A stretch of 64,000 nucleotides of DNA. It comes from Candidatus Latescibacterota bacterium (GTDB lineage: Bacteria; Krumholzibacteriota; Krumholzibacteriia; WVZY01; JAKEHA01). Location: the NCBI GenBank assembly GCA_963707635.1, contig OY970173.1, positions 2,400,001-2,464,000 of the forward strand. The letters run 5' to 3'. Under the pieces are notes generated by a model that was given only the letters and a program-made list of their open reading frames with translations, made no database searches and had not been told where the DNA came from. The position numbers were made by a program, and so were the translations under genes. Below, one piece after another: positions 42,247-62,570 of this stretch (its first letter is position 1; every line of letters starts with the position of its first letter).

Positions 42247-45200
42247 ATGCACATCCGCCCAGTCATCGCCGCCGCCCTGGTGGCGGTCGCGCTCGCCGCC
42301 GACCTCCACGCCCAGACCCTGCCCGGGGGATTCTACGTCGAGAATGCCGCTTCCGGCGCGACTTTCGACACGCCGGTCGCGGTGGCGTTCGCGGCGGATG
42401 GCCGCGTCTTCGTGGCGGAAAAGTCAGGCGTGGTCTACGTCATCCAGAACGGGATCAAACTCGCGGCGCCGTTCATCGACCTCTCGTGGGACGTGCTGAA
42501 CCACCACGATCGGGGACTGCTGGGCATCGCCCTTGACCCGAGTTTTACGACCAACGGCCATGTCTACTTCCTCTATACCTTCGACTGGAACCAGGCCGGC
42601 GACACGCAGCGCACCGACGTGCCGGGTCGCCTCGTCCGTTACACGGCGAGTACAGCCAACCCAAACCTGGCCGACATCAATTCGCGGCTGGTGTTGCTGG
42701 GAAGCTCGTTTGCGAACGCGATTCCCGCGTGCTACTTCTCGCACGCGCCGGGTGCCCTGCGCTTCGGCACGGACGGCACCCTGCTGATCGCGGCCGGCGA
42801 CGGTGCCAGCTACAACGAGGTGGACCCGGGCGGTCTGTACCCGGACTGCTTCGGGTCCGGAAAGCTCCCGACCACCCAGGACATCGGTGCGTTCCGCGCC
42901 CAGTGGATTCAGAGCTACGCGGGCAAGATTCTCCGCGTCGATCCGGCGACGGGCAACGGGCTCCCGTCGAATCCGTATTACACGGGTAATGCCGCCGACA
43001 TCCAGTCGAAGGTGTGGGCGTACGGCCTGCGCAACCCCTATCGTTTCGGCGTACGGCCCAACGGCAGCGGGAATCCCGCCGACGGCAACCCGGGTTCCTT
43101 GTATATCGGCGACGTGGGCTGGAACACTTACGAAGAAATCAACGTCGCGCGCGCCGGTGGCGGCGAGAACTTCGGCTGGCCGTGCTACGAGGGCCCGAAT
43201 CCAAACGGCGCCTACCAGGCCGCGAACCCCGCGCACCACGGCTGCGCGACGATCGGGACCCCGCAGAATCCGTCGCCGCAAGTCCCCCCGCTCACCTACT
43301 GGCACCACGACAACGGCGGGCTGTCGTTCCCGCCCGGTGTCACCGGCGCCACGTCGATCGGCGGCGCGTTCTACACCGGCACGAAGTACCCGCCGTCGTA
43401 CCAGGGCGCCTACTTCTACGGCGACTACTCCGGCCAGTGGATCAAGGCGCTGGTGGTCAACACCAGCGACGATTACGTCTCCCAGTCCGACTTCGGCTCG
43501 TCGATGGGAGGGATCGTCGACATTCAGTACAACCCGGTCGACCAGTACCTCTATTACATCGATATCTTCAACGGGCAGGTCTTCCAGATCCGCCACGTCG
43601 ACGGAGACGCCAACAGCCCGCCAGTGGTGAGCGCGGCCGTCACGCCGCGCTGGGGCTACGCGCCGCTCCTGGTCCAGTTCGACGGAACCGCGTCGTACGA
43701 CCCGGATCAGGACCCGATCACCTTTGCATGGGATTTCGGCGACGGGGCGAGTGCCACCGGCGCCGTGACGTCCCACTCCTACGCCACCAACGGGACCTAC
43801 GTAGCCACGCTCACCGTGCGCGACGACTTCGGTGCCACCGCCACGGGGGTGGTCTCCATTTCGGTCGGCAATACCCCACCGCACGGGATCATCCGCTCCC
43901 CGGATAATGGCGCCAGCGCCTCGGTCGGTGACCAGATGCTGCTCTGGGCCCAGGCGACCGACGCCGAGTCGCCGGGGCAACTTTCCTTCCACTGGGAAGT
44001 GATTCAGACCCACAACCATCACGACCATCCGAACTTCTTCACCGCCGACGGTCCGATCGCGCAGTTCTACATCGCGGAACACGGACTCCCGAACGAGGTG
44101 AACTTCCTGCGCGTCGAACTGCGCGTGACCGACGCCGGCGGCCTGACCGACACCAGCCGGGTGTACATCGCGCTCAATCGCAACGGCGAGGCCGACATCA
44201 CGGACGAGGGCGCGGCCGGAGCACTCGTCACTTCGCCCGGCGGGTCCGGCAGCCCCGACCTCGCGGTGATTCACGACGGCGTGTTCCCCCCGGCCGGCAG
44301 CGGCGACCCGCTCGCGCAGTACGACACGTTCACCGACGGATCGCCGCGCGCACAGGACTGGGTTGAATACACCTTCCCGGGAACGCGCTATTTCTCGAAG
44401 CTGGTCTTTCAGGAGGGAATGCATTTCCCCAACGGAGGGTGGTTCGAAGCGCCCGGAGTCGAAGTGTTTGCCGACGGTATCTGGTCACCGGTCGAGTTCC
44501 TCCAGGCGGTCCCGCCCTACCGCGGCAACGACGGGGTCAGTTACGACATTTACGCCCTCACGTTCAAGGCGCACGCCGGAACCGGGATCCGCCTCATCGG
44601 GGCCCCGGGCGGGTCCGGCGACTACATCTCGATCGGCGAGCTCCGGGTCTTCGAGATCCCGCGCGCCCAGTTCAGCGCTGACACCCGAGCCGGCTCCAAC
44701 CCGCTCACGGTCCACTTCACCGACGAGTCGAACGTGACCGAACCCGAATCGTGGCTGTGGCGCTTCGGCGACGGCGCGACCAGCACCGAACAGCACGCTG
44801 CCCACGTGTACACGGTGCCCGGTCCCCACACGGTGAGCCTGACGGTGACGAGTGCGCAGGGCACCTACTTCGAGGAGAAACACGCGTACATCCTGGTGGG
44901 AGCGCCAGGGCTCGCCGCGGAGTACTTCGACGATCTCGGCCTGGCGACTCCCCGGCTGGCGCGTATCGACGCGGCGATCGACTTCAACTGGGGTACCGCT
45001 TCGCCCGACCCGTCCATCGGCGCGGACTCGTTCTCCGTGCGCTGGTCCGGATGGCTCCAGCCGCGGTACACGGAGACCTACCTGCTCCGCACGACGACCG
45101 ACGACGGGGTTCGCCTCTGGGTTGACGGTGCGCTCGTCATCGACAAGTGGGTCGATCAGTCCGCCACGGAGTGGAGCGCGTCGCTTCCACTGGTCGCCGA

Positions 45201-46269
45201 CGAGTTGCACGAGATCCGGATGGAATACTATGAGAAGGGAGGGGGCGCCACTGCACGGCTGCGATGGTCCTCGCCTGGCCAGGCGCTCGAGGTCATTCCG
45301 CAGTCGCGGCTGTGGGCGCGCGAGTGCGGAGCCGGTACCGGCGACATGGACGGCAACGGCACGCTGACCCCCGGCGACGCGTTGTGCGCGTTCAGCACAT
45401 TCTTGAACGGCCAGACGGTGCCTCCCTCGTGCGACGCGGCGAATTACGACTGCGAACGGGCGGCCGCGGACACCGATTGCAACGGCGCCGTCACTCCGGC
45501 GGATGCGCTGGCGGTCTATCAGCACTACCTCGCCGGACTCCCGCTCCAGATCTGCCTGGGACAGGCTGCGCCGGCGTCCTTCACGTCCAGCGTGGCAACG
45601 CCCCGGGTGTCGGTGGCGGTCGTGTCGTCGCCGGTCGACGGCTCGGTAGAGGTGTCGGCCACGGCGCTGGACGCGAGCGGGCTCGACGCCTTCGGCGCAC
45701 GCGTGGTCTTTCCCGCCGACGAGTTCACCTTCGATCGTCTGCTGCCCTCGCCGGATACCGGCGACTGGCTGATGCTGGACGCGCGGGCCACCGTCGCCGG
45801 GTCCGCTCAGGTCGGCGGCTGCAACCGCCACGGCCTCGGCAGCGAACCCGCGGAGCTGTTCCGGGTACGACTCCTTCCCGCCGGTGCCAACGCGCAGGCG
45901 AGTCACATCGTCGTTACGGATTTCGTCGACGACCTCGCGGGCGCCGTCGTGACCGATGCCCCCCCATCCGCGGCGCCGTCATCCGCGTTTCGCCTCCACC
46001 AGAATCGCCCGAATCCGTTCAACCCGGTCACGCGTATCTCCTTCGAAGTGCCCGCCGGCGCGGGGCGGGTGCCGGTCCGGCTGGCCGTGTACTCGGTGCG
46101 CGGCGAACTCGTGCGGGTGCTCGCGGACGGCGAACGCGCGCCCGGACCCTACGAAGCCACGTGGGACGGCCGTGACGAGCGCGGCGCGCCCGTGACCTCC
46201 GGCATCTACTTCTACCATCTGCGCGCCGGGACGTATTCCGCGTCGCGGCGCATGGTGCTGCTCAAATGA
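42247..46269 (+). CDS. Secreted modular protein: PQQ sugar-dehydrogenase propeller, PKD domains, PA14, dockerin-like, cohesin-like, FlgD-Ig tail
   Basis: RGLLGIALDP, GKILRVD, GLRNPYR, GDVGW; WDFGDG and WRFGDG; DSFSVRW, DDGVRLW; GDMDGNG..DTDCNG; NRPNPFNP..RMVLLK. Confidence 0.85.
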   Translation: MHIRPVIAAALVAVALAADLHAQTLPGGFYVENAASGATFDTPVAVAFAADGRVFVAEKSGVVYVIQNGIKLAAPFIDLSWDVLNHHDRGLLGIALDPSFTTNGHVYFLYTFDWNQAGDTQRTDVPGRLVRYTASTANPNLADINSRLVLLGSSFANAIPACYFSHAPGALRFGTDGTLLIAAGDGASYNEVDPGGLYPDCFGSGKLPTTQDIGAFRAQWIQSYAGKILRVDPATGNGLPSNPYYTGNAADIQSKVWAYGLRNPYRFGVRPNGSGNPADGNPGSLYIGDVGWNTYEEINVARAGGGENFGWPCYEGPNPNGAYQAANPAHHGCATIGTPQNPSPQVPPLTYWHHDNGGLSFPPGVTGATSIGGAFYTGTKYPPSYQGAYFYGDYSGQWIKALVVNTSDDYVSQSDFGSSMGGIVDIQYNPVDQYLYYIDIFNGQVFQIRHVDGDANSPPVVSAAVTPRWGYAPLLVQFDGTASYDPDQDPITFAWDFGDGASATGAVTSHSYATNGTYVATLTVRDDFGATATGVVSISVGNTPPHGIIRSPDNGASASVGDQMLLWAQATDAESPGQLSFHWEVIQTHNHHDHPNFFTADGPIAQFYIAEHGLPNEVNFLRVELRVTDAGGLTDTSRVYIALNRNGEADITDEGAAGALVTSPGGSGSPDLAVIHDGVFPPAGSGDPLAQYDTFTDGSPRAQDWVEYTFPGTRYFSKLVFQEGMHFPNGGWFEAPGVEVFADGIWSPVEFLQAVPPYRGNDGVSYDIYALTFKAHAGTGIRLIGAPGGSGDYISIGELRVFEIPRAQFSADTRAGSNPLTVHFTDESNVTEPESWLWRFGDGATSTEQHAAHVYTVPGPHTVSLTVTSAQGTYFEEKHAYILVGAPGLAAEYFDDLGLATPRLARIDAAIDFNWGTASPDPSIGADSFSVRWSGWLQPRYTETYLLRTTTDDGVRLWVDGALVIDKWVDQSATEWSASLPLVADELHEIRMEYYEKGGGATARLRWSSPGQALEVIPQSRLWARECGAGTGDMDGNGTLTPGDALCAFSTFLNGQTVPPSCDAANYDCERAAADTDCNGAVTPADALAVYQHYLAGLPLQICLGQAAPASFTSSVATPRVSVAVVSSPVDGSVEVSATALDASGLDAFGARVVFPADEFTFDRLLPSPDTGDWLMLDARATVAGSAQVGGCNRHGLGSEPAELFRVRLLPAGANAQASHIVVTDFVDDLAGAVVTDAPPSAAPSSAFRLHQNRPNPFNPVTRISFEVPAGAGRVPVRLAVYSVRGELVRVLADGERAPGPYEATWDGRDERGAPVTSGIYFYHLRAGTYSASRRMVLLK

Positions 46270-46279
46270 GGCCGGAGCG

Positions 46280-48106
46280 ATGAGAACGACGATCCTTTTC
46301 GCCGCCGTCGGTGTCGTCCTCGCGGCGTCCGTCGCACGCGCGCAGATTTCCGTCAACCCGGCCGCATCGACCGCCGGCTCCGGCGGTCAGTACGCCTACG
46401 TCGCGCTCGACCTCGACAACCCGGCGGGGACACCGATCGATGCGTTCGGCTTCCAGATCGCGTATCCGACGAACCTGCTCACGTTCCAGTCGATGTCCAG
46501 CGCCGCGACGCTGACCCAGGGCTGGTTCGTCGTCTCGGGGTCCGAGAATTCCCCCGGTGTCGTGCAGGTCGGAGGCTTTCACTCGACGGCGACCACCGGC
46601 ACGGGCGTGCTCGTCTACGCGGTGTTCCTGGTGAAACCGAATGCGCTCGGCACCGGCGCCATCGCGCTGTCCGACTTCGTCGACGACTTCGCCGGTGCCA
46701 CCACCGTGAACGGTGTCTTCCAGGCGGGTGTCGCGCCCGGCGCCGCGGGGTTGCTCGGACACTACTACGACAACATCAACTTCACCGGCGCGTTGCTCAC
46801 CCGCGTCGATCCCGTCGTCAACTTCGACTGGGCCAGCGGCGCACCCGACCCGTCGATGGGAATCAACGATTTCTCGGTTCGGTGGACGGGCTGGGTACGG
46901 CCCGCTTTCACCGAGACCTACACGTTCTACAGCCAGACCGACGACGGCGTACGCGTGTGGGTAAACAACCAGCAGATCATCAACCACTGGGTCGACCAGT
47001 CCGTCACCGAATGGAACGGGAGCATCGCGCTCACCGCCGGAGCGCTGGTGCCGATCACGATGGAGTTCTACGAACGCGGCGGGACGGCGGTGGCGCGGCT
47101 CCTGTGGTCCTCCCCGAGCCTCGCGAAGCAGGTGATTCCCAGTTTGCGACTGCAGGCGACGCCGTGCGCGCAGGGCGTGGGCGACGTCGATGGAGACGGC
47201 CTCCTCGAGACGAGCGACGCCGTCTGCGCGTTCAGCGTGTTCCTGGAAGGCCAGCAACTCGCGCCCGGGTGTGACTATTCGACCAACGCGTGCGAGCTCG
47301 CCGCCGCCGACGCGAACTGCGACGGCGAGGTGACCCCGGGCGATGCCCAGGCCATCGAGCAGCGGCGCGCGGCCGGCCTTCCGCCCGCCGCGTGCTTCGC
47401 CACCGCGGCGGCGCCGGCCCAACCTCTCCAGCTTGCGCTCACGCAGGATGTGGTCGACGACGCGGGTACGCCGCGCCTTCTCGTCACGATCGCGGCGCAG
47501 GATGCGGCTGGCCTCGACGCCTTCGGCGGCAGACTCGTCTTTCCGGCGGCGGAGCTAACGTTCCAACGCGTCGAGTCCGGGTATGCCACCCGCGACTGGC
47601 TCGCCGTGGACGCGCGAATCGCCGACGCCGGTCAGCTTCGGATCGGCGGGTACGAACCCGTGGTCGCGGCCGAACCCGGCCCCGCTGTCATCTGCCACCT
47701 TTATTTCGACTTCAGCGGCCCGCCCCACGTCGTCGGCGGGCTCGCTTTCTCCGATCTGGTAGACGACTTTGCCGGGGCGACGATCGTGGGCACGGTCACC
47801 GCGGTGCCGTCGCTCACCGGCGAGTACCGACTGCACCAGAATCGGCCCAACCCGTTCAACCCGTCGACCCAGATCCCATACGAGGTGGCGGGCCCCCGCT
47901 CGGGAGAACACGTTCGCATCGCCATCTACGACGTGCGTGGGGCACTCATCCGCCTCCTGGTCGACGCCGACCACCCACCCGGCTCCTACCTCGCCACCTG
48001 GGATGGGCGTGCGAACGACGGGGCCGAAGTGTCCTCGGGAGTCTATTTCTGCTCGATGCGGGCGGGAGGGTATGCGCAGTCGCGTCGGATGGTCCTGCTC
48101 AAGTAG
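46280..48106 (+). CDS. Secreted modular protein: cohesin-like, PA14, dockerin-like, cohesin-like, FlgD-Ig tail
   Basis: Signal peptide; IDAFGFQIAYP; DFSVRW, DDGVRVW; GDVDGDG..DANCDG; LDAFGGRLVFP; NRPNPFNP..RMVLLK. Confidence 0.83.
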   Translation: MRTTILFAAVGVVLAASVARAQISVNPAASTAGSGGQYAYVALDLDNPAGTPIDAFGFQIAYPTNLLTFQSMSSAATLTQGWFVVSGSENSPGVVQVGGFHSTATTGTGVLVYAVFLVKPNALGTGAIALSDFVDDFAGATTVNGVFQAGVAPGAAGLLGHYYDNINFTGALLTRVDPVVNFDWASGAPDPSMGINDFSVRWTGWVRPAFTETYTFYSQTDDGVRVWVNNQQIINHWVDQSVTEWNGSIALTAGALVPITMEFYERGGTAVARLLWSSPSLAKQVIPSLRLQATPCAQGVGDVDGDGLLETSDAVCAFSVFLEGQQLAPGCDYSTNACELAAADANCDGEVTPGDAQAIEQRRAAGLPPAACFATAAAPAQPLQLALTQDVVDDAGTPRLLVTIAAQDAAGLDAFGGRLVFPAAELTFQRVESGYATRDWLAVDARIADAGQLRIGGYEPVVAAEPGPAVICHLYFDFSGPPHVVGGLAFSDLVDDFAGATIVGTVTAVPSLTGEYRLHQNRPNPFNPSTQIPYEVAGPRSGEHVRIAIYDVRGALIRLLVDADHPPGSYLATWDGRANDGAEVSSGVYFCSMRAGGYAQSRRMVLLK

Positions 48107-48143: not shown

Positions 48144-48219
48144 TGGTGCGAAGGGACGGAATTGAACCGCCGACACAGGGATTTTCAGTCCCTTGCTCTA
48201 CCAACTGAGCTACCTTCGC
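48144..48219 (-). tRNA. tRNA-Phe(GAA)
   Basis: GCGAAGGTAGCTCAGTTGG...AGGGA-CTGAAAA-TCCCT...GTTCAATTCC...CCA. Confidence 0.95.
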
Positions 48220-48319: not shown

Positions 48320-48355
48320 CAAAGACACGGCGGGGCCCCCGAGGGGGCCCCGCCG
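48320..48355 (-). terminator. Intrinsic terminator of the porin-cytochrome operon
   Basis: CGGCGGGGCCCC-N4-GGGGCCCCGCCG followed by TGTCTTT on the minus strand. Confidence 0.65.
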
Positions 48356-48390
48356 CGCGGGAAACCACAATTCACGGATCTGCGCGTCGT

Positions 48391-49428
48391 CTAGCGCGAG
48401 CCCTCTCCTCCGTCTTCCTTGCGCGCCGCAATCGGTGCCGGCGGCGGCGGCGGGTTGTTGTTCAGGTAGTCGATCGCCGACAGCAGGAGCCCGCTCATGT
48501 ACTGGCGGTTGTGCACGCCGATACTCCGGTCCTCCTCGACCAGCAGGAAGTTCCAGATCGCCCCGGCCTCGTCCGAGGTTCTGGTTCCGGCCGTGGGCAA
48601 GCCGGTCGAGGCATTGAGGAAGCCCCGCCCGACGAGGAGGGTGCGCAGCGAATCCACGAGTTCGGCGGTCTCGGTCTGCACCCCATCGATGTCAAAGTTG
48701 GTCGTGGTGCCGTGGCAAGGCACACAGGCAGCGGTGTTGAGGATCTCGCCCTCCTCGTCCACCCAGCGCATGTTCCAGGTGTGACCGCCCACCTTGCTGT
48801 TCCGCGTGTATTTCATGTGACAGTCCCAGCACCCGTTCTCGGTGGCAGAACGGTGCTCGGTTTGCTGGTACGAGTAGCCCGCATACTCGTATCCGTTCGA
48901 GCCCATGATCATGTCGCCCTGCACGCTGTGGTGGGGACCCCAGCGATTGTTGGCGATGGTGACGGTTCCGCCCTCCACGTACGTTTCGACATTCTCGCGT
49001 GCGTGGTGGCACGAGGCGCACAGGTTTCCGAAGCCGAGGTCGAACTTGAACCCGTTCTGCAACGCCTGCGTCTCTGTCACGCGGAGTCTGAAGTCGCCGT
49101 TGGTGTGCGGCGCGTGGCAGGTGAAGCAGTGGATTGCGGTGGGGTTATCGACGTTGGCCGGCATCGTCCCGGTTTCGATCCGCGACACAAACCCCTCGCT
49201 GGTATGACACCCGTTGCACGGCGTCGTGCTGCGGTTGGTGTTGAGACTGCTCCCGTGAACGGAATGCTCCCATTGCAAGGTATTTGCAATGATCTCCGTG
49301 TCCTGGTCCGAGTGACAGTTGAAACACGTTTGTGGAGTGGTGTCCTCGGCCACGGTCGTCACGCTACGGTCACACGCGTAGAGCGACGCCGCGGCTGCGA
49401 CACACACCCAGATTCGAAGTTGTTTCAT
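48391..49428 (-). CDS. Hexaheme c-type cytochrome lipoprotein
   Basis: Lipobox LYA-C; 6 CxxCH (CFNCH, CNGCH, CFTCH, CASCH, CWDCH, CVPCH); C-terminal DRSIGVHN. Confidence 0.88.
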   Translation of the reverse strand: MKQLRIWVCVAAAASLYACDRSVTTVAEDTTPQTCFNCHSDQDTEIIANTLQWEHSVHGSSLNTNRSTTPCNGCHTSEGFVSRIETGTMPANVDNPTAIHCFTCHAPHTNGDFRLRVTETQALQNGFKFDLGFGNLCASCHHARENVETYVEGGTVTIANNRWGPHHSVQGDMIMGSNGYEYAGYSYQQTEHRSATENGCWDCHMKYTRNSKVGGHTWNMRWVDEEGEILNTAACVPCHGTTTNFDIDGVQTETAELVDSLRTLLVGRGFLNASTGLPTAGTRTSDEAGAIWNFLLVEEDRSIGVHNRQYMSGLLLSAIDYLNNNPPPPPAPIAARKEDGGEGSR

Positions 49429-49469
49429 CGTGGTTTCCCTCCTGCAGCGCCGGCTCATCGCCGGCTGTC

Positions 49470-51059
49470 TCACTCCGTTGAAAAATCGTATCCGACGTTC
49501 AGCCAGACGACGTTCGCCGTGTAGTAGCGAGCGGCGACGAGGTAATCGTCGTAGTTGTAGACGTTGTACTTCGCATCGACGCTGAAACCCCGCGGAAGCG
49601 CGCAGCCGAGGTCGAACGAGAGGATCGACTTGACGATGTCCAGATCGTCGGTGATGCTCACGACGGTGACGCCGGCGCCCGCCGTGAGCCTGTCGAACAC
49701 ATCCGCGTGGACGCGCCCGGTGACAAAGTCGCTCTTCACGTGGTACCCACCCACGGTGTTGACATAATCGTCATCCGAATACTGATAGCTCACTTCCACG
49801 TGGGCCGCGTCGAGGCCGGCGTCGCCCGAGAACTCGTGGTCGTAGCGGCCGTAGGCCGAGGCGTAGAAGCCATCCGCCTGCGAGCCGATATCCGGCATCT
49901 CGCGGTTGCGCTCGGCGAGGCGACCGCCCACCGTGATGCCCGTTACGGGTTTGGTTTCGATGCGCGCGTCCCAGCGGTCGTACTCGGTGTCGCGCAGGAG
50001 CGTCTGGTCCTCTTCGTCTTCCTTGCTGCGCGTCGACCAGGAGAATCGGGCCGAAACCTTGTCCGCGCGCAGTGCGAGGGCCGCGCGGAGGTTGTCGTAC
50101 GTGGTCACCGAGCGGTCGTCGTCCCACGCCTCCCAGCCGTACCCGCCCGAGAGCGTCGCGATGCGGTAGCGCACCTCGATGTCGCCGTCGTGGATATACC
50201 GGTTGGTCCGGAGATTCGTCGCCTCGTCGTCGACCTGTCCGCCGTAGAAGCGGTATTTCGCGCGCAGCGCCGGCCACAGCGCGAGCACGCCCGTGTACTG
50301 GATCGTCTCCATGTCGTACCCGAGGCCCGACTCCTTGAGTTCGTTGCGTCCGATCGACGCGCGCACCACGTGGGTGAGTCGGTCGAAGAACAGGCCCGGG
50401 ACGTGCAGGTTCGCGGAATACACCCGCCCCTCGCGCTCGTTGAGCGCCGACACGTGGTCGGTCAGATTGGCGACGTCGGCCGCGATGGTCCCGCCGATGC
50501 CGTTGGACGCGCGCATCTGGGCCTCGATGCGGTAACGGTTCAGGTCGAAGTCGTAGGTCGTGCCCAGCGCGCTCTGGACACCGGACGGGTACCCGATCCG
50601 GTCGCCCTCCCGCGTCTGGAGGCCGTAGTCGGCCGAGAGCCAGATCCACTTCGCCGGGGTGAGCGACAGCGTCGACCAGAAGTCGCGCCGCATCGCGTCC
50701 ACCGCGCCCGCCGGGTCGAACACAAAGCGGCTCTCGTCGTAGCGCGACCGGAAGTGCAGCATCCCGGTACGGCGGAAGTCGAGCGTGCCGTTACGATCGT
50801 CGAGGTTGATGTCGTTGAGGTTGAAGCGAAGGTGCGTCTTCGGATTGAATCGGCCCTTGAGGTAGAGCGAGGTGACCGAGTAGCCCTCGTAGACGTTGAA
50901 CGTCTCCTGCATCACGCTCTGGTCGCCGACTTCGTCCTTGACGATACCGCCCATGCGGATCCCTCCGTCCCACACCGAGGTGGAATCGGCCCGGGCGCTC
51001 CCCGCGATCAGCATCGCGCTCGCCCATGCAAGGAGAATCAGGATCCGTCTCATGGTCAT
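49470..51059 (-). CDS. Outer-membrane beta-barrel, MtrB/PioB-like porin
   Basis: Signal peptide; alternating Y/D/R-rich strands; terminal strand WLNVGYDF; sits between decaheme and lipoprotein cytochromes. Confidence 0.78.
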   Translation of the reverse strand: MTMRRILILLAWASAMLIAGSARADSTSVWDGGIRMGGIVKDEVGDQSVMQETFNVYEGYSVTSLYLKGRFNPKTHLRFNLNDINLDDRNGTLDFRRTGMLHFRSRYDESRFVFDPAGAVDAMRRDFWSTLSLTPAKWIWLSADYGLQTREGDRIGYPSGVQSALGTTYDFDLNRYRIEAQMRASNGIGGTIAADVANLTDHVSALNEREGRVYSANLHVPGLFFDRLTHVVRASIGRNELKESGLGYDMETIQYTGVLALWPALRAKYRFYGGQVDDEATNLRTNRYIHDGDIEVRYRIATLSGGYGWEAWDDDRSVTTYDNLRAALALRADKVSARFSWSTRSKEDEEDQTLLRDTEYDRWDARIETKPVTGITVGGRLAERNREMPDIGSQADGFYASAYGRYDHEFSGDAGLDAAHVEVSYQYSDDDYVNTVGGYHVKSDFVTGRVHADVFDRLTAGAGVTVVSITDDLDIVKSILSFDLGCALPRGFSVDAKYNVYNYDDYLVAARYYTANVVWLNVGYDFSTE

Positions 51060-51065
51060 CACCCG

Positions 51066-52004
51066 CTAGAACTGATGGCACCCCACCACCGTGCAGCCCT
51101 GCGCCGCCAGCGAGGGGTCGAGCAGTTTCGCGTTGTCATACGAGCCGTGGACGTCCACGTGACAATCGTTGCACGGCACACCCGCCCACGAGGTGCCATG
51201 ATTCACGTTGTTCAGGTGCTTGGGCACAGCGTGACACTGCAAACACAACGCGAAGTCCGGCGATTCATAGCTCTGTTTGAGCAGGCGCGGCTGCGTCGAC
51301 CCGTGTGCCGCGTGGCAATTCAAGCACCCGCCCTCTTCCGTGGAGTAGTCGACGGCCGCCTGGTGCTCGTACGGGAACGGCCCCTCGAATTGCGCGTGGC
51401 ACGTGGTGCAGGTCGTCCCCGGCCCGGTGTAAACGTGCTGCTTGGAGCTCTGCGCCACCGACAGATGGCAGTCGCTGCACGCCACCACACCCTCCATCAC
51501 CGGATGGTGGGACGGCATGGCAAAGTCGCCCTGCGCGGACGCGTGGCACGAAAAGCACAGCGTGGGCTGCTCGTCCTTGAGCAGACCGAGGTGGGCGCTG
51601 CTGTGAACCTGGTGACAGCCCGTACAGGAAACGTCCGCGTCCGCGTGCGGATCCCGCTCGAAGAGATTCAGCGTGTGTGGGTGCTCGTGGCAGGTCGTGC
51701 ACACCGCCGTCACCGAGTCGGCTCGCATGTGGGCCGGATTGACCGCCGGGTTCTCGTCCGGGTCGTCGAGGTGCTGGTCGGTCGCCGCGCCGGCGTGGCA
51801 GCCCAGGCACGACACGACCTTCCCGGCGGCAGGATCGTGGGGAGTGCCGGCCATGGCGTGCACCTGTGATTCGTGGCAATCCAAGCACGCCTCGTCGGAA
51901 GCTGCATCGGTCTGGGTGGAACGCGCTCCACCGATCGCGAAAACGAACGCGAAACTCAAGAGGATGAGGGCGAAGGCGAAGATGGTGCGACGAGGGTGTC
52001 TCAT
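51066..52004 (-). CDS. MtrA/DmsE-family decaheme cytochrome c with an extra CX4CH
   Basis: 10 CxxCH; SHHPV, GPFPYEH, CHAAHGS, CHVDVHGS signatures; terminal CTVVGCH. Confidence 0.88.
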   Translation of the reverse strand: MRHPRRTIFAFALILLSFAFVFAIGGARSTQTDAASDEACLDCHESQVHAMAGTPHDPAAGKVVSCLGCHAGAATDQHLDDPDENPAVNPAHMRADSVTAVCTTCHEHPHTLNLFERDPHADADVSCTGCHQVHSSAHLGLLKDEQPTLCFSCHASAQGDFAMPSHHPVMEGVVACSDCHLSVAQSSKQHVYTGPGTTCTTCHAQFEGPFPYEHQAAVDYSTEEGGCLNCHAAHGSTQPRLLKQSYESPDFALCLQCHAVPKHLNNVNHGTSWAGVPCNDCHVDVHGSYDNAKLLDPSLAAQGCTVVGCHQF

Positions 52005-52218: not shown

Positions 52219-53541
52219 TTAGCGTGAATCGAGCTGCCGTATCTTGAGAAACAGCGCGAGCGCGAGGATGGTCGTAAACAGGGTCGCCATCCCGAACCCG
52301 CGCCGGCGCACGTGGAAGTCCTTGATCTGTCGGGCGGCGAGATCGAGGGCTTCGTTCGCCTTGGCGAGACCCTCCGACGTCTTGGCCCCTACCTTCTCGG
52401 GGTCGAACGTGTGCACGAGCGTTCGCGATTCGATCAGGCTCTGGTGCGATTCCTGAAGGAGGAACCCGATGTCGACGTCGTCCATGCCGATGCGCTGGAC
52501 TTCGGCCTGACGGTTGAGAGCATCCTCCTGCGCCGCGGAAAGCGACGCGAGACTGACATGGATCTTCCCGGCGGTCTCGAAACCGACGTCACCCTCCGAA
52601 TGGCAATCGATGCAGACCGCGCCGCTGACGTTCCCGACCATGGAATCGGAGGTCTTTTTCACGCCATGGTTGCCGTGACACTCCTCACAGCCATGGTAGC
52701 CCTCCTCCACGAACGCGCGGCCCATTCGTGACTCGGTGAAATACCGCATATTGTTGGCATGGCATTGTCCGCACACCTGGGTGATGGACGTGATCCCCGG
52801 CGGCGTCGCGCCGTGGTTTCCGTGGCAGTCGTTGCACGCGGGAGCACCGGTATCCTCTTTCTCGAGCAGCGCGACCCCGTGCACGCTGTGCTTGAACTCC
52901 TCGAGCTGATTGGTGGGGATGCCGTAGGGCGCCATGTACTCCGCGTCCCCGTGACACCTCCCGCACGTTGCCGGGACGTTCATCGCGTTCACCGTCGATC
53001 GAGTGTCGGACGCGGGGAGGATTCCGTGGGCGGTGTGGCAGCTCGTGCAATCCGCGACCTTCTGGTCGTGCTGCTTCAGCTTGTGTCCGTGCACGGAGGA
53101 GGCATACTGGCTCTCCTGGTCGGTCGGAATGCGCGGCTGGTACTGCCGCATGAAGTCGATGTCCGAATGACAGCGACCGCAGAACGCGGGGATTTGTTCC
53201 TTCGAAGGGACGCCCCGAAACCCGGCCGTGGCGCTCATGGCGCGATCCTGATCGTCCTCGGCGGGGTTGCCGCCGTGACACCCCGCGCACGACAACCCGG
53301 GCTTCATGTGGATGTCGGCCTCGAGGAAGTGCTCGGGCAGATTGTCGTCCTCGGTGTGACACGCGACGCAATGATCGACCGCGGGTTCCTTCGCCGACAC
53401 TTCGGCCGCCTCGTCTTTGCGCGCTGCTTCATCTTCTTCGTCGGCCAGACCCGGGCCGACGACGAGGATCGACAGCCCGAGCCACACCACCACTGTCCAC
53501 GCCCGCCCGTGGCGGGCCACGGCCGCACGACCGGTCGTCAT
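52219..53541 (-). CDS. Nonaheme c-type cytochrome with C-terminal membrane anchor
   Basis: 9 CxxCH; signal peptide; C-terminal TM helix; ATGA-coupled to cytochrome b. Confidence 0.9.
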
Positions 53542-54662
53542 ACCAGGTACCCCCAGACGGTCATCGCGATGATGTAGAGGATCGCGATCACGCCGACCAG
53601 CGTCATGGGCCGCACGCGATCACCCGGCCGGCGCCGGGCCTCCCAGAACGGCACCAACAGCCACGCGAGCGCCAGCAGCCCGAACCCCAGGATGCCCAGC
53701 ACCTCTCCTTCCATGAAAAGCACGTGCGCGGGCAGGAGCTTGAGCGTCTGGAACATGAACATGAAATACCACTCCGGGCGGATGCCCTTCGGGGCCGACG
53801 TGAACGGGTCGGCCTTCTCCCCCAGCTCCCACGGAAAGAAGACGGCCAGAAAAAGGAGCACGTTCAGCACCAGCAGCCATAGGAGCATGTCGCGCAGGAG
53901 AAAGTTCGGAAAGAACGGGATGGTCCTGCGGCGCGCTGGTTCGAGCCGCTGCACGTACTCGGGCTCGTGCATCCCCTGTCTCTGCACGAACAGGAGATGC
54001 GCGAACAGAATGGCCGTGAAGATGGCCGGCAAGAGGGCGATGTGAATGGCGTAGAAACGGGTGAGAGTCGCGCCGGTAACGTCCTCCCCTCCACGCAGCA
54101 GAATCTTGATGGGATTGCCCAGGAGCGGCACCACCCCCGCGATATCGGTCCCCACTTTGGTCGCGAAGAACGCCAGCTGGTTCCAGGGAAGGAGGTAGCC
54201 GGTGAATCCGAACCCGAGCGCAAGGCACATGAGCACGAACCCGGTGACCCAGGTCAGCTCCCGCGGCGCGCGGAACGCCCGGGTGAAGAACGTGCTGAAC
54301 ATGTGAATGAAGACGAACAAGACCATGAGGTTGGCCGACCAGCTGTGGACCGATCGCATCAGCCAGCCAAACGACACCTTGGTCGTGATGAAACGCACAC
54401 TCTCGAAGGCGTTCGCTTCGTCGGGCTTATAGTAGAGAACGAGCAGAATCCCGGACGCCACCTGCACCATGAAAAGGAAGAGCGCGACACCGCCCATGTA
54501 ATACCACACGGTGTGGCGGTGGACCGGCACCTGCTTGTGCCGCATGAAATCGATCAGCGGGGTGATGTGGAAGCGATCGTCGAGCCAGCGGTAGACCCGG
54601 CGGGCTGCCCCGACGGGTGCTCGGCGTTGTCGCGTGACCGAGTCTCTGGGTGCGTCAGCCAT
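53538..54662 (-). CDS. Cytochrome b of a Rieske/cytochrome b complex
   Basis: [41 protein letters not shown]. Confidence 0.94.
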
Positions 54663-54668
54663 CGGCGC

Positions 54669-55100
54669 TCACGCCATCCTGGAAACGAGGATTTCGCCCG
54701 CGATTACGTTGACGGCGTATTCGTCGAGTGGCCGCGGCGGCGGCCCGGAAACGTTGCGCCCCTTGAGGTCATAGAGACCGTTGTGGCACGCGCACCAGAT
54801 CTGCTTGAGGTCGCCGCGGTACTGCACGATGCACTCGAGGTGGGTGCAGGTGGCGGAGAACGCGCGGAACTCGCCGGACTCCTCGCGGATGAGGATCACG
54901 GGCTTGCGGCCGAACTTCACGATTTGCGCCGTGTTGACGGCAAAGGCTGACTCGGGGCCCGCCTTGACGGCCTGCACGGTCGCCTCGGGGACTCGCGGGG
55001 GGCGCAGGTAGGAGAACACCGGGTACAACACGCTCCCCAACCACCCGAGGGCTCCGCCGGTCAGGAGCAGTTGAGTGAATTCTCGGCGCGTCATACCCAT
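54669..55100 (-). CDS. Rieske 2Fe-2S subunit
   Basis: Tat motif TRREF; CTHLEC and CACHNG; GPPPRPL. Confidence 0.94.
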   Translation of the reverse strand: MGMTRREFTQLLLTGGALGWLGSVLYPVFSYLRPPRVPEATVQAVKAGPESAFAVNTAQIVKFGRKPVILIREESGEFRAFSATCTHLECIVQYRGDLKQIWCACHNGLYDLKGRNVSGPPPRPLDEYAVNVIAGEILVSRMA

Positions 55101-55267
55101 TAACGAATCCGATTATCCGGTATACGAGGCAGTCTATTCAAGTGGGCCCGTAACGTCCACCGGTAATTCGCGTAAACTCGGGCCCGCGTGTCCGGGCGGG
55201 AACCGGAGCCCGAGGTTGACAGGGCCGCCGGTGCCGTCATAGCATGCAGAACAGCCGCTCGTCATTC

Positions 55268-57400
55268 ATGCGCCCTCCAGCCATCCTCTTTGGCAGCCGG
55301 CACGTGCCGCGCAACCGCGTCGTCACGGCGCTGACGCTCCTTGCGGTCACCCTCCTTGCGCCCGGGGCGCTCCCGGTCCGCGCCCAGGTGGACACCGCCG
55401 CCTGTCTCGATTGCCACGACGACGCGTCGATGAAATCGGACGCCGGGCGCCCCATCGGCGTGGTGGCGAAGGCGTTCCACGCCGGAGCGCACGGCGGGCA
55501 GGAATGCGTGGACTGCCACGCGGCGCCCGGCAACTACGACGACGCCCCCCACTACGCGAAATACACGCCGGTCGATTGCTCCCGGTGCCACGACGATGTC
55601 GGGCCGGAGTTCAAGGGGTCGATCCACGAGAGCCTCTTTACCGATGGCGACATGGCGTGCACGACTTGCCACTCGATCCACGACCGCACCCCGACTCCGC
55701 GCGAGGCGCTCGCCGCGTGCGGCGGCTGTCACGAAGATGCCGCGGCCGACTACGCCACCAGCGTTCATCACGCGGGCCGCAAGCGCAACGGGCAGAGCGC
55801 GGCGACGTGCACCAGCTGCCACGGGAGCCACCACGTCGTCGCGGTGACCGACTCGACGTCACCGGTGCATCCACGCAACGTGCCGCGGCTGTGCGGGGAA
55901 TGTCACGCCAAGGAGTCGCCCATCACCGCTGACTTCGTCCGGCTTCCGATTTCGGTACCCGCGTATCTCAAGTCGGTGCACGGCCAGGGGTGGCAGCAGG
56001 GCAAGAAGACCGCCGTCTGCACGGACTGTCACGGCGCCCACGACTCGCGCCCCGCGTCCGACCCGAAGTCCCACATCAACCGGCTGAACGTGGCGGCGAC
56101 CTGTGGACGGTGTCACGACCAGATCGGCGCTGAATTCGCAAGCTCGATCCACGGGAAAGCGGTTGCGCTCGGCATTACGGACTCTCCGACCTGCATCGAC
56201 TGCCACAACGAGCACCTGATCCAGCGACCCCAGGATCCAACCGCCGCGATCAGTCCCGAGCACCGCGCGCGCGAGTTGTGCGGCAACTGCCACACCGACC
56301 CCGAGCTGATCGCGAAGTACGGGATCGCGTCCGGAGTCGTGGAGACATACCTCGACAGCTACCACGGCTGGGCAGTCGCTCGCGGCAGCGACCTGGTCGC
56401 GACCTGCACGGACTGCCACAACGTCCACGAGATCAGAAGCCCGCTCGACTCGCTTTCGACGGTGCACCCCGCCAACGTGGCCAGGACCTGCACGAAATGC
56501 CACGCCGGTGCCACCGAGCGCTTCGCGCAGAGCTACACCCACCTGGGTGCCCTCGCGGCGCGCGGCCCGCACGGGTGGGTCCGCACGATCTATCTCTGGC
56601 TGATCGGTGCGGTGCTCGGGGGCATGGCGCTGCACAACGCCGTCATCGTCCGCCACGAAATGAAACGGCACATCGCGCACGTGCGCCGCGAGCCGTATGT
56701 CCGCCGCTGGCACAGCGCCGAGAAGATCCAGCACCTGGTCCTGTTCTTGAGCTTCGCCGGGCTGGCCGTCACCGGCTTCGCGCTGCGTTTTCCCGACGCC
56801 TGGTGGGTCCGGCTCGTGGGCCTCGAGAGCCATGAAGGGCTGCGAGCCAACCTGCACCGGGCGTTCGCGGTCGTGCTCGTGGCCTCGGCGATCTACCACG
56901 CGGCGTGGATCGTCGCCACTCGACGTGGGCGCGTCTCGCTGCGCGCGATGGCGCCGGCCTTCCACGACCTGCGCCAGGCGGGCGAGAATATCGCCTATCA
57001 CATCGGCCGCCGCCCATCGCGCCCCGCCTTTGGCACGTTCGACTATACGCAGAAGGCGGAGTACTGGGCGCTGGTCTGGGGAACGGGGATCATGGCGTTG
57101 ACGGGGCTCGTGCTCTGGTACCCGGCGCTGGCGACGAACCGATTCCCGGTGTGGATCGTGCGCGTCGCCGAAGTGATTCACTTCTACGAGGCGATTCTCG
57201 CCGTTTCCGCCATCTTCATCTGGCATTTCTTCTTCGTGATCTTCCTGCCGGCGGTATACCCCATGAGTACCACCTGGCTCGACGGCCGCATCCCCGCCCG
57301 CGAATGGAAGGAGTTCCACGCCGGGGAATACGCGGAGAAAGGCGATCGGGAAATCCTGGAACCCGGGGAGGACGATCCCTCCCCACCCGGCGGCGCGTGA
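55268..57400 (+). CDS. CbcL-like multiheme c (13 hemes) / cytochrome b fusion
   Basis: 13 CxxCH followed by FdnI-type b domain (QHLVL, LHR, QKAEYWALVWG, IHFYEA); start uncertain. Confidence 0.87.
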   Translation: MRPPAILFGSRHVPRNRVVTALTLLAVTLLAPGALPVRAQVDTAACLDCHDDASMKSDAGRPIGVVAKAFHAGAHGGQECVDCHAAPGNYDDAPHYAKYTPVDCSRCHDDVGPEFKGSIHESLFTDGDMACTTCHSIHDRTPTPREALAACGGCHEDAAADYATSVHHAGRKRNGQSAATCTSCHGSHHVVAVTDSTSPVHPRNVPRLCGECHAKESPITADFVRLPISVPAYLKSVHGQGWQQGKKTAVCTDCHGAHDSRPASDPKSHINRLNVAATCGRCHDQIGAEFASSIHGKAVALGITDSPTCIDCHNEHLIQRPQDPTAAISPEHRARELCGNCHTDPELIAKYGIASGVVETYLDSYHGWAVARGSDLVATCTDCHNVHEIRSPLDSLSTVHPANVARTCTKCHAGATERFAQSYTHLGALAARGPHGWVRTIYLWLIGAVLGGMALHNAVIVRHEMKRHIAHVRREPYVRRWHSAEKIQHLVLFLSFAGLAVTGFALRFPDAWWVRLVGLESHEGLRANLHRAFAVVLVASAIYHAAWIVATRRGRVSLRAMAPAFHDLRQAGENIAYHIGRRPSRPAFGTFDYTQKAEYWALVWGTGIMALTGLVLWYPALATNRFPVWIVRVAEVIHFYEAILAVSAIFIWHFFFVIFLPAVYPMSTTWLDGRIPAREWKEFHAGEYAEKGDREILEPGEDDPSPPGGA

Positions 57401-57525: not shown

Positions 57526-58116
57526 ATGAAACGAGTTGGCGGGGGTGTCATCGCGCTGTGGGCCGCAGGTGCCTTCGTGGTCGCGCAAACCGGGGCAGCC
57601 GCGGCGGCCGACCACGCGTTCGTGGGAGCGGCGAAGTGCGCGACCTGTCACAAGACGGTCGCGCAGGGCGAGCAGTTCCCGAAGTGGCAGGCGAGCATGC
57701 ACGCGAAGGCCTACGAGACCCTGGCCGGTGAAAAAGCCAAGGAGATCGCGAAGGCCAAAGGCATCGCCGACCCGCAGAAGGCTCCCGAGTGCCTCAAGTG
57801 CCACGTGACCGGATACGGAGCCGCGGCGGCGCTGCTCGGCGAGAAGTACGCGGTCACCGACGGCGTCGGGTGCGAGTCCTGCCACGGCGCCGGCGGCGAC
57901 TACGTCAAGAAGGCGACGATGGAAGGCGTCATGAACGGCACCATCACGGCCGCGTCCGTCGGCCTGGTGAAGCCCGACAAGGCGACGTGTGAGAAGTGCC
58001 ACAACAAGGAGAGCCCATCGTTTACCTCGTTCGACTTCGACAAGTCGTACGCGAAGATCAAGCACGAGATGCCGGCGGAGCGCAAAGCGAAGTACAAGGC
58101 GCCTGCGGGCGGCTAG
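57526..58116 (+). CDS. Tetraheme cytochrome c554-like periplasmic protein
   Basis: AAGGAG RBS; signal peptide; FVGAAKCATCH, HAKAY, CLKCH, GVGCESCHGAG, CEKCH. Confidence 0.88.
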   Translation: MKRVGGGVIALWAAGAFVVAQTGAAAAADHAFVGAAKCATCHKTVAQGEQFPKWQASMHAKAYETLAGEKAKEIAKAKGIADPQKAPECLKCHVTGYGAAAALLGEKYAVTDGVGCESCHGAGGDYVKKATMEGVMNGTITAASVGLVKPDKATCEKCHNKESPSFTSFDFDKSYAKIKHEMPAERKAKYKAPAGG

Positions 58117-58233: not shown

Positions 58234-61015
58234 CTACTTGTAGCCGAAAATCACCGAATAGATGATGAGCGCGATCAGGATCAGCCCCACGCCGAGGAAG
58301 AGCGACCCCGCCACGCGTACGCCGATTTCCCACCGGCGCGACAGCGCCCCTTTCACGAGGCGACGGCGGAGTTCACCCGTGCGCTTCATCTCCTCGTATT
58401 CGACGGGACGATCTTTGATGTAGTCCTCTAGCGGGGTCAGCCCGGTGAAGACCACGGTGTCCATCGGGAAGGCTTCGGGGCGCAGGTGCGTATTGAAGAA
58501 ATGGATGGTAAAGATGAAACCCACCGCGAGCAATGCCTCGTCGCTGTGGATGATCGTCGCCACGTTGATCAGCGCGCCGGGAAGGAAGCGCGTAAAGAGT
58601 ACCGGGAGCCACAGCATCAGCCCGGACGCCCCGATGATCGCGACCCCCCAGAACACCGCGAGGTAGTCGAATTTCTCCCAGTAGGTCCAGCGCCCGTAGC
58701 GCGGACGCGCTCCCGCGCCGAAGAACCACTTGAGCGTCCCGACGAAGTCATTTAGGTCCTTGCGGTTGAACATCAGCGAGTTCGGCCCGAAGGCGAGCTC
58801 TCGCCAGCTCAACCGCCGCTCGCGCTTGTGTCGCACCAGCGATGCGACGTGGAAGCTGAAGTACCCGAACGTCGCCACCGCGGCAATGCGGTGGATGACG
58901 CCAGCGACGCGGACGCCGCCGAGCACGCCGGAGAGGAAGGCCGCCCACGGCATCGCGGAGAACTTCAGTATCATGCCGGTGAGGGCCAGCGAGAGGAAGC
59001 TGGTGATGACGAACAAGTGCGTGATCCGCTGCGCACGCGTAAAACGCCGTATGTAATATTTCGTCTCGCGTTTTTGCGCCCCGCGCTTGCGTTCGAGCAT
59101 GTGGCGGAACGAACGCGGCAGCCACAGCACCGTGTGCAACCCGAAAAAACTGAACACACCCACCAGCAGGAACGTCATCGCCCAGTACGAATAGTAGAGG
59201 AACGGATACTTGTCCGGGTCGTGGTGCGTCGCGTGCGTCAGGTAGCCGGTGAAGCGCTGGTTTGCGTCCTCGTGACACTGACGGCACGTCCCCACGATGT
59301 TCTTGAATCCCACCTTCGAATTCGGATTGTTGGTCGCAAGGATCTCGTGCGCGCCGTGACAATCGGAACACCTCGCCGCCTTGAAATAGCCAAGCCGGTA
59401 GGCCTTGCCGTGCATCGTCTCGAGGTAGGTCTTGGACAGCTCGCCGTGGCACGAGCCGCACTGCTGCGTCACCTCGAAGAGAAAATCGTCTTTCTCGACG
59501 TCGCCGATGGTATGGGACGAGTGACAGCTTGCACAGTTGGGCAGCTTGTCCACGTCTTTCCCGCTCGCCGCGTAGTGAACGCTCTTGATAAACTGCTTGT
59601 AGATCCCGCGGTGGCACACTGCGCACGTCGCGGGCAGGTTCTGCTTCGAGACTGTTGAGCGCTCGTCCGTGTGCTTGAGCACCATGTGGGACGAGTGGCA
59701 GTCGATGCAGATCGCGCTGGGAAGCAGCCCTTTTTCCGTGAGCGCCCGCCCGTGCACGCTCTGCGAGTAGTCGGCGAACGCCGACACCTGCGAGAGGGTC
59801 GCGACCTTCGACGCTTTCCCCTCCTCCCGGTGGCAATCGCCGCACAACGCCGGCACCGCTGCGCGATACGTGCGCGACGATTCCTGCAGGTGGGAAAGCG
59901 TGCCGTGAGATCCATGGCAGGTCGTGCAGTAGGGGGCCTCCTCGACGCCCCGCGCGTGCGCCTGGCCGTGCCCACTCACCGTGTACTCCTCCGAGATTTT
60001 CGCGTGACAGTTCGAGCAGTCTACGCGTCCGGACGTTTCGCACGGGCGCTTGCGGCGCGGGTCGACGTCCGCGTGGCACTTCACGCACGGTATGGTCTGG
60101 TGGACCGACGACGCAAGTTCTTCACGGTCGACCGTCATCGAAACCGTGTCGCCGGCCTCGACCCCGAACAGGTTGGGCTGTTCGTGACAGCGCAGGCAGT
60201 CGCGGTCGGCGATGGCGAGCGACGCCGCCTCCTTGCGCACCTTGTGCGGCACATGGCAGTCGGTGCACGCGGGGATCGCGCCCGGCGCCTTTTCCCACAG
60301 TTCCCCCCGGATGACCTTGGTGTGGACCTCTTCGATCTTCGCGTGGCACTTCATGCAGGTCGCGGTGATGTTGCGGGGCGAGATCGAAGCGCGCGGCTCC
60401 GTGTGCGGAAGGATCAGGTGCGCATTGTGGCAGTCCGCGCACGCCGCGGTCACGATCAGGCCCTTCTTGAACAGGCCCTCTCCATGAATGCTCTCGCTGT
60501 AGTTCTCCAGGATGTTGTGCGCCGAGATTTCGTACGTGTTCGCGACGGGTGCACCCTCCCGGTGGCATTTCCCGCACAAGTACGGCACGTTCATCTTGTA
60601 TGCGGTCGAACGCCCGTCCCGGGGCGAGAGGATGTCGTGCACCCCGTGACAGTCCTTGCACGACGGTGCGTACGGCGCGTGGCGCTTCAGCGCCTGGCCG
60701 TGGATGCTGGCGTCGAAGTCGAGTTGCTCGTCGTCGTGGCAGGTCCCGCAGTAGACGGGGTGGAGGTCGTCGGCGTGCGGCAGGTCCTCGGGGTCGACGT
60801 CCGCGTGGCAGGCTGTGCAGTTCAGGTCCCGGTGAACGGACGCCCCGAAGATCTTCGCGTCGAAGAACGGTGTCTCGTCGTCGTGCTCGCCGTGGCACTC
60901 GAGACAGGTGTCGTGGTCCGTGGCGGATGCGTTGGCGTCCGGAAGGAGGAGGAGCGGGACCAGCAAAGCGATCGGGAGCAGAACACGCCGAATGGCGATG
61001 CGGCGCGCCGAGGGA

Positions 61016-61044
<29 letters not shown>
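58234..61044 (-). CDS. CbcL-like multiheme c (19 hemes) / cytochrome b fusion
   Basis: 19 CxxCH; YGRWTYWEKFDYLAVFWG, IIHSDEALLA, HFFNTHLRPE. Confidence 0.9.

Positions 61045-62570
<1,526 letters not shown>

Follow-up and report, generated by a model that had tools for sequence, protein, structure and literature searches.

A putative variant of the Mtr-type outer-membrane conduit, with a likely eleventh heme and an OcwA-like lipoprotein partner, in an uncultured Krumholzibacteriota genome

Three adjacent genes, referred to here as A, B, and C, were analyzed in a 64,000-nucleotide stretch of DNA from a Candidatus Latescibacterota bacterium of the GTDB phylum Krumholzibacteriota (assembly GCA_963707635.1, contig OY970173.1, positions 2,400,001 to 2,464,000; this whole stretch is called the window below). 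The trio probably encodes an outer-membrane electron conduit of the Mtr type, in which a cytochrome predicted to carry eleven hemes (A) would sit inside a beta-barrel (B) and pass electrons to an OcwA-like lipoprotein (C) that would occupy the place of MtrC outside the cell. The sequence side of this reading consists of the conserved heme motifs, the order of the genes, and an N-terminal tag on C, and structural models provide the strand count, girth, and short loops of B as well as the core of C. A sequence-only reading of the same DNA had raised the possibility that the trio represents a distinct class of conduit. On the models it is a variant instead: the A-B core is of the MtrAB type because the predicted barrel has 26 strands and overlays MtrB along its full length. 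Feature positions are collected in Table 1; sampled porin loci and genomes carry the labels L### and G###, with G000 being the genome of the window.

The cytochrome A is homologous to MtrA (profile against 6r2q_A, E 2.8e-42) and, as had been claimed from the sequence, contains ten CXXCH motifs and then CTVVGCH close to its C-terminus. The suggestion that this last motif holds an eleventh heme is well supported by its conservation. All 120 A homologues examined (the best 120 of 3,267 matches) end in C-Xn-C-H, with n equal to 4 in 106 proteins, 6 in 12, 5 in one, and 2 in one. The same was true of every porin locus with a readable upstream cytochrome (91/91, from 97 distinct loci pooled from several samples; the loci are related and counts from them are not independent), where n was 4 at 77 loci, 1 at eight, 6 at three, and 2 at three. 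On a quick tree of 83 rows, from which partial A proteins were left out, the canonical CXXCH spacing at those last three loci corresponds to three separate changes, at least two of them forced by strongly supported branches; L077, which has an unrelated canonical decaheme, was left out of the CXXCH count. Exactly 11 free histidines are invariant in the 120 homologues (H56, 78, 110, 120, 134, 167, 214, 234, 263, 269, and 286). H110 and H269 are missing from both canonical decahemes aligned as controls, and the histidine following MtrA heme 6 is absent from A, so that two ligands appear to have been gained and one lost, leaving a net one extra ligand for one extra heme. Elsewhere in the lineage, CX4CH occupies sites at which homologues have CXXCH (heme 1 of an octaheme, L037 versus L047). 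The Ccm system of E. coli is said, in work by Allen et al. from 2009, to attach heme to CXnCH with n ranging from 2 to 6, and the genome of the window encodes the System I maturation genes ccmABCEF. Both CX4CH (PMC11492766) and the contracted CXCH (PMC7096707) are known heme motifs. Judged from these sequences, the terminal motif of A very probably binds an eleventh heme. Proteins related to NapC that lie beside the trio at other loci have three CXXCH motifs and one CX4CH (L024:11132-11842, L035:6130-6816, and L022:11173-11862), and CxxxGCH is widespread in the lineage.

It is improbable, in our estimate, that the terminal cysteine pair instead forms a disulfide or another metal site, which would leave A a decaheme with H310 as a distal ligand. 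Such a role would be compatible with a motif spacing that ranges from 1 to 6 residues, with the oxidising surroundings of the outer tip of A, with the absence from A of the last histidine of MtrA (HPSG), and with the status of CX5-6CH, for which heme binding is described as not established in a 2014 survey (PMC4245776). A histidine nevertheless follows the second cysteine directly in every case, and the 11 free histidines match 11 hemes without any need for H310. The spacing is also canonical at three loci and CXCH at eight, and CXCH makes a poor disulfide. MtrA has its C-terminus on the outward side, and heme 10 is its only exposed heme (PMC7198977); by analogy, heme 11 of A would lengthen the outer tip. 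The 2014 survey lists no atypical motif in the inner cytochromes of Mtr or Pcc systems (PMC4245776).

B has no match in Pfam or NCBIfam, including PF11854 (MtrB/PioB), which only 3 of 72 homologues match weakly (best E 0.0014), and the B profile finds no PDB sequence at E 1. The predicted structure (mean predicted local distance difference test score, pLDDT, 91.4) has 26 strands. Foldseek ranked MtrB first (E 2.3e-15, TMq 0.77, 11% identity), and VIA-align superimposed 485 of 505 residues on MtrB at a root-mean-square deviation of 2.9 A (Z 27.1, the next match having Z 17.3). Strands 1 and 2 of the model are separated by a small helix, a feature shared with MtrB. The MtrB structure likewise has 26 strands, and its mouth is constricted by loops that reach a height of about 45 A (PMC7198977). 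In the B model, by contrast, the loops of the predicted outer face have a mean length of 6.8 residues and a maximum of 14. The modeled barrel is short, not narrow, with the strand count and girth of MtrB but a trimmed lid. The earlier statement that the barrel, at about 530 residues, is shorter than MtrB was correct, but the idea of a different or narrower barrel was rejected on the strand count and the full-length overlay.

The third gene had been described as encoding not MtrC but a lipoprotein with six CXXCH motifs and a tail seen in relatives of NrfA, and both its motifs and its predicted fold bear this out. For a profile built from 132 sequences, the top match is OcwA (E 3.3e-11), followed by OmhA (4e-6) and then by NrfA proteins; a Foldseek search with the C model (pLDDT 91.9) gives the same order, with OcwA (E 1e-5, TMq 0.55) ahead of OmhA and the nitrite reductases. 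By motif order in the alignment, hemes 2-6 of C correspond to hemes 5-9 of OcwA, which form the NrfA core. In OcwA, a His-His pair lies over heme 5, which has only five ligands (PMC6703420). Among 120 C homologues, H148 is invariant and H149 is present in 106, and five more histidines are conserved for the remaining five hemes. On its model, C is a member of the NrfA structural superfamily with an OcwA/OmhA-like core and a C-terminal helix bundle bearing DRSIGVHN. It shares with OcwA and OmhA the NrfA-type core, the helix bundle, and, as far as coordination can be read from the alignment, a His-His pair over an open heme, but it has six motifs rather than the at least nine hemes, including a c554-like half, of those proteins. 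Nonaheme homologues of C that stand alone do occur in the phylum.

Two other identities for C were considered and rejected. MtrC was set aside because C has six motifs, an OcwA-like fold, and no match to TIGR03507; a census of open reading frames with at least three CXXCH motifs in the genome of the window found no decaheme besides A, and hence no MtrC. PF02335 matches C at 24.2 bits against a cut-off of 24.1, over residues 203-258 only. Neither CXXCK nor KxRH/KxQH, the latter being diagnostic of NrfA, is found in any of the 120 homologues, and C was not accepted as an NrfA on these grounds. The same absence bears on a related explanation, in which the architecture is as proposed but C mainly turns over a soluble compound (nitrite, hydroxylamine, or an oxyanion) at the cell surface and the conduit feeds an extracellular reductase in the manner of DmsEF, without mineral contact. 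The predicted open heme with its His-His pair would suit such an enzyme, many nitrite reductases appear lower in the fold search, and OcwA reduces both nitrite and hydroxylamine, but its turnover of nitrite is low (kcat 1 per min; PMC6703420). At other loci, moreover, an octaheme or a tetraheme stands in for C, and we hold a dedicated soluble-substrate role to be very doubtful.

The segment that follows the lipid-modified cysteine of C is well conserved. Its consensus among homologues is C-[EDST]-R-x-[VI]-T, with the arginine in 120/120, valine or isoleucine in 116/120, and the threonine in 110/120, and the lipid cysteine lies 16-17 residues from the first heme cysteine in 115 of them. This segment has low confidence in the C model. 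Octahemes of different make-up that replace C at several loci begin with the same tag: of the 76 third-position lipoproteins found after B, 74 have arginine at +3 and two have lysine, hexaheme or octaheme alike. By contrast, none of 19 stand-alone C homologues, drawn from the weaker matches among 72, has arginine at +3, and most start C-x-G-D-x-G-P. In the genome of the window, arginine at +3 occurs in 5 of 90 crudely called lipoproteins, and the full tag occurs in C only. The pattern suggests, at the level of sequence, that the tag serves in docking or sorting and goes together with the barrel, though it could alternatively have been inherited from a fused ancestor.

In the proposed mechanism, electrons from quinol would travel through neighboring cytochrome b/multiheme and NapC-like proteins, and A would lie inside the 26-strand barrel with its N-terminus in and its C-terminus out, as MtrA does. 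Heme 11 would extend the wire outward at its tip and would be left exposed by the short loops of B, and C would dock there, probably through the C-x-R-x-[VI]-T segment. Heme 2 of C, five-coordinate under the His-His pair by analogy with OcwA heme 5, would then reduce acceptors outside the cell such as Fe/Mn oxides, humics, or electrodes, and possibly soluble N-oxides. Outward electron flow is favored because the neighboring proteins are of quinol-oxidising types and C resembles surface reductases.

Several observations weigh against this reading. A scores below the cut-off of the DmsE profile (TIGR03508; 155.7 versus 192.2 bits). C is evidently dispensable, given that 4 of the 97 porin loci lack a third cytochrome and that homologues of C stand alone without a porin. 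In the window, C has aspartate at +2, which in enterobacteria is an inner-membrane retention signal; the residue at this position among the 120 homologues is E in 58, D in 40, S in 12, and T in seven. The genome, which is 96% complete, yielded no dedicated type II secretion system: its sole secretin is PilQ, within pilMNOPQ, and GspC was not detected. MtrC requires type II secretion in Shewanella (PMC7198977). Finally, an MtrAB + PetAB cluster of Zixibacteria, in which no outer cytochrome is described, was interpreted as serving iron oxidation (PMC3903129).

An unlikely alternative that nonetheless deserves real weight is that A and B alone form the outer conduit, similar to MtoAB or PioAB and with heme 11 exposed, and that C faces the periplasm as a relay between A and inner-membrane complexes, possibly for uptake of electrons from Fe(II) or other outside donors. 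Castelle et al. (2013) interpreted the Zixibacteria MtrAB + PetAB genes in this way (PMC3903129). The lack of detected type II secretion, the acidic residue (Asp/Glu) at +2, the absence of C from four loci with room to see one, the adjacent Rieske protein and cytochrome b, and the usually periplasmic location of NrfA-family proteins all fit this arrangement, and the short loops together with an extra outer heme would let A-B touch substrates unaided. Against it, the proteins of known structure closest to C act as terminal reductases at the cell surface, the +2 residue is variable, and the island around the trio already holds other periplasmic or membrane-anchored multihemes. The third position is also taken by several different cytochromes, like the outer partners of other conduits (PMC4245776). 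A complex prediction for A with C (residues 1-308; score 0.00, mark 0.32) gives no evidence either way, and a search of the genome for PorP/SprF returned no matches, with the controls likewise silent. We retain the conduit with an external partner as the preferred reading and place C probably outside the cell.

The A-B-C order and the motifs are kept in many genomes, which argues that the trio is more than a chance arrangement. B is present in 35 of 61 genomes in a sample of relatives (the genome of the window counted), in 41 of 151 sampled from the phylum of the window (Krumholzibacteria by the names of homologues), and in 18 of 121 sampled from the phylum of an Eisenbacteria genome. Named homologues of B belong to Candidatus Krumholzibacteria. 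When the B profile was run against 1.84 billion representative sequences, 219 matched at E 0.001; among those listed, 66 are full-length (504-557 aa), and one cluster bears a Zixibacteria name. A metagenome scan using a Zixibacteria porin gave no matches. At the 97 distinct loci, the gene after B is of the C type at 67, another cytochrome at 10 (two of them clipped by contig ends), and no cytochrome at four, and the contig edge intervenes at 16.

Some of these loci are unusual in their own right. At L162 and L182, octaheme and hexaheme third partners are fused into one lipoprotein with 13 CXXCH motifs after the same porin, with an additional CX4CH at L162. In G024, a tetraheme cytochrome with the tail [ST]-W-[GS]-x-[IV]-K-x-L-[YF] replaces C after the porin (L037:10225-10911). 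This tail closes 42 open reading frames in G000 and may be a secretion or sorting signal. Frameshifts or breaks affect A, B, or C, a 19-heme gene, or an octaheme at L030 (G013), L031 (G028), and L048 (G027), and these may be assembly errors. A second type of conduit, seen at L139/L146 (G087) and L136/L147 (G078), consists of an octaheme lipoprotein, a canonical decaheme, a 671-aa barrel, and an 11-heme gene, transcribed divergently from a nonaheme OcwA-like lipoprotein; the 671-aa barrel has no Pfam match and was seen in G087 only.

A broader proposal, speculative and rather unlikely as it stands, is that the trio belongs to a modular family whose MtrB-type barrel, with its loops trimmed, takes up swappable lipoprotein caps (hexaheme, octaheme, or 14-heme fusion) through a C-[DEST]-R-x-[VI]-T tag that pairs with or threads the barrel. 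Surface display would then be achieved without type II secretion, and the eleventh heme, with a motif whose spacing is free to vary (CX1-6CH), would be the outer contact.

Among the closest known systems is MtrCAB of Shewanella (PDB 6R2Q; Edwards et al. 2020, PMC7198977). Both it and the trio pair an MtrA-type cytochrome with a 26-strand barrel (predicted, in the case of B) encoded next; the two barrels agree in fold and girth and in having a helix after strand 1, and a lipoprotein cytochrome is the third part in each. The trio differs from it in the likely eleventh heme and re-wired histidine ligands of A, and in a barrel with about 505 mature residues versus 649 in the MtrB structure, 11-12% identity, short loops, and no PF11854 match. 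It also differs in its third part, which is six-heme, OcwA-like, and encoded after the barrel rather than a decaheme MtrC, and in the lack of detected type II secretion. With an MtrA homologue that has ten CXXCH motifs and a signal peptide, adjacent to a barrel of modeled MtrB fold with 26 strands, the A-B core is an MtrAB-type conduit by structural definition, as judged from the model, though not by profile cut-offs. The trio is not MtrCAB in the strict sense, for it lacks a decaheme MtrC/OmcA lipoprotein.

C shares with OcwA of Thermincola potens (6I5B; PMC6703420) and OmhA of Carboxydothermus ferrireducens (6QVM; PMC7829351) the NrfA-type core, CXXCH at the open site, the His-His pair, and a helix bundle with S-x-G-x-H-N. 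Those proteins have nine and 11 hemes, respectively, and no porin partner, whereas C, with six hemes (equivalent to OcwA hemes 4-9), is a diderm lipoprotein whose gene goes with a porin-cytochrome pair. The MtrAB + PetAB cluster of Zixibacteria RBG-1 (Castelle et al. 2013, PMC3903129) resembles the present locus in its MtrA and MtrB homologues, Rieske/cytochrome b, several multihemes, and origin in a related uncultured phylum, but, compared by description only, it has a decaheme and no outer cytochrome.

Weak cross-matches link A and B to Geobacter GSU2203/GSU2204 (NF041028, NF041027): A scores 143.9 bits, and 20 of 72 B homologues match NF041027 (best E 4.3e-8). These scores are far below the cut-offs (325 and 350 bits), B of the window has no match, and it has no CXXCH; assignment of A-B to this pair was rejected for the low scores and the absence of CXXCH from the porin. 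C may resemble the C-terminal half of OmcB. Weak homology between OmhA and OmcB has been described (PMC7829351). The Geobacter Pcc systems (OmbB-OmaB-OmcB and ExtABCD; PMC4245776) are similar in that a porin and an inner cytochrome are joined by an outer lipoprotein cytochrome that varies; there, atypical CXnCH motifs occur in the outer cytochromes, unlike here, where the core is of the MtrA/MtrB type and the atypical motif lies in the inner cytochrome A.

MtrAB homologues in Zixibacteria were already known (PMC3903129). No description of an eleven-heme MtrA or of an OcwA-like partner of MtrAB was found in the literature covered, which did not extend to subscription papers and supplements. Of what is new here, the eleventh heme, which is well supported, and the tag common to the third-position lipoproteins stand out most. 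The trio suggests a capacity for extracellular electron transfer among uncultured members of Krumholzibacteriota, Eisenbacteria, and Zixibacteria, and with a barrel that matches no family profile and an outer partner other than MtrC, standard annotation would undercount such conduits. It would also join two lines thought separate, the Mtr wire and the OcwA-type reductase of Gram-positive cell walls. The homologues of A offer a natural series (CX1, 2, 4, 5, and 6CH at one site) for probing the heme-attachment tolerance of System I, and if the tag is indeed a docking or export signal, it could provide a compact, swappable means of assembling electron conduits in other hosts, E. coli among them.

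Table 1. Positions of the trio and of associated and neighboring features in the window
Feature	Position	Strand	Details
Gene A, MtrA/DmsE-like cytochrome	51066-52004	minus	312 aa from ATG 52004; signal peptide; 10 CXXCH and terminal CX4CH; 11 invariant free His
Likely eleventh heme site, CTVVGCH	51075-51095	minus	C304-TVVG-C309-H310, residues 304-310; two residues ahead of stop
Gene B, outer-membrane beta-barrel (predicted)	49470-51062	minus	530 aa from GTG, 527 from ATG 51053; no CXXCH
Gene C, hexaheme lipoprotein	48391-49428	minus	345 aa; lipobox LYA-C; 6 CXXCH; tail DRSIGVHN
CDRSVT, lipid Cys and conserved N-terminal tag of C	49357-49374	minus	candidate docking/sorting signal
Sigma70-like promoter, TTGACA-16-TATACT	52048-52021	minus	11/12 matches; consensus match alone
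Possible terminator, 15-bp GC hairpin 3' of C	48325-48358	minus	z -2.08; poor U tail
Upstream operon: Rieske protein, cytochrome b, membrane-anchored nonaheme cytochrome	52219-55100	minus	likely inner-membrane partner, loosely linked
13-heme/cytochrome b561 fusion	55244-57400	plus	likely quinol-to-periplasm feeder, loosely linked
c554-like tetraheme	57526-58116	plus	likely quinol-to-periplasm feeder, loosely linked
19-heme/cytochrome b561 fusion	58234-61275	minus	likely quinol-to-periplasm feeder, loosely linked
NapC/NirT-like protein, ~500 residues	61041-62570	minus	likely quinol-to-periplasm feeder, loosely linked

The claim that the trio has its own promoter and terminator fared unevenly. 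The promoter is a strong consensus match, and two promoter-like sites occur within 7.5 kb versus a mean of 0.6 in shuffled sequence. Its predicted transcription start, at about 52014, favors ATG 52004 as the start of A, though the reading frame reaches further 5', to ATG 52019. The terminator did not hold up as well: 7 of 200 shuffles fold as well as the hairpin, and the terminator scan did not call it. Directly downstream of the trio lies a tRNA-Phe gene (48144-48219) with a weak promoter-like site of its own (48277-48248). The GC content of the trio region is 0.63-0.66 versus 0.66-0.69 in the preceding 10 kb, a difference too slight for calling transfer.

The trio often lies within a larger cytochrome island. 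Parts of this island adjoin it in 14 of 36 regions, in changing order, and the link between the two is for this reason considered loose. Elsewhere in the genome, cytochromes with 16 and 20 hemes form a cluster of their own (L145:8011-13476, at G000 ~3.052-3.057 Mb). On the other side of the trio, window positions 42247-48106 encode two secreted proteins. Both contain PA14 and FlgD-Ig domains, and one also has a glucose/sorbosone dehydrogenase propeller and PKD domains.

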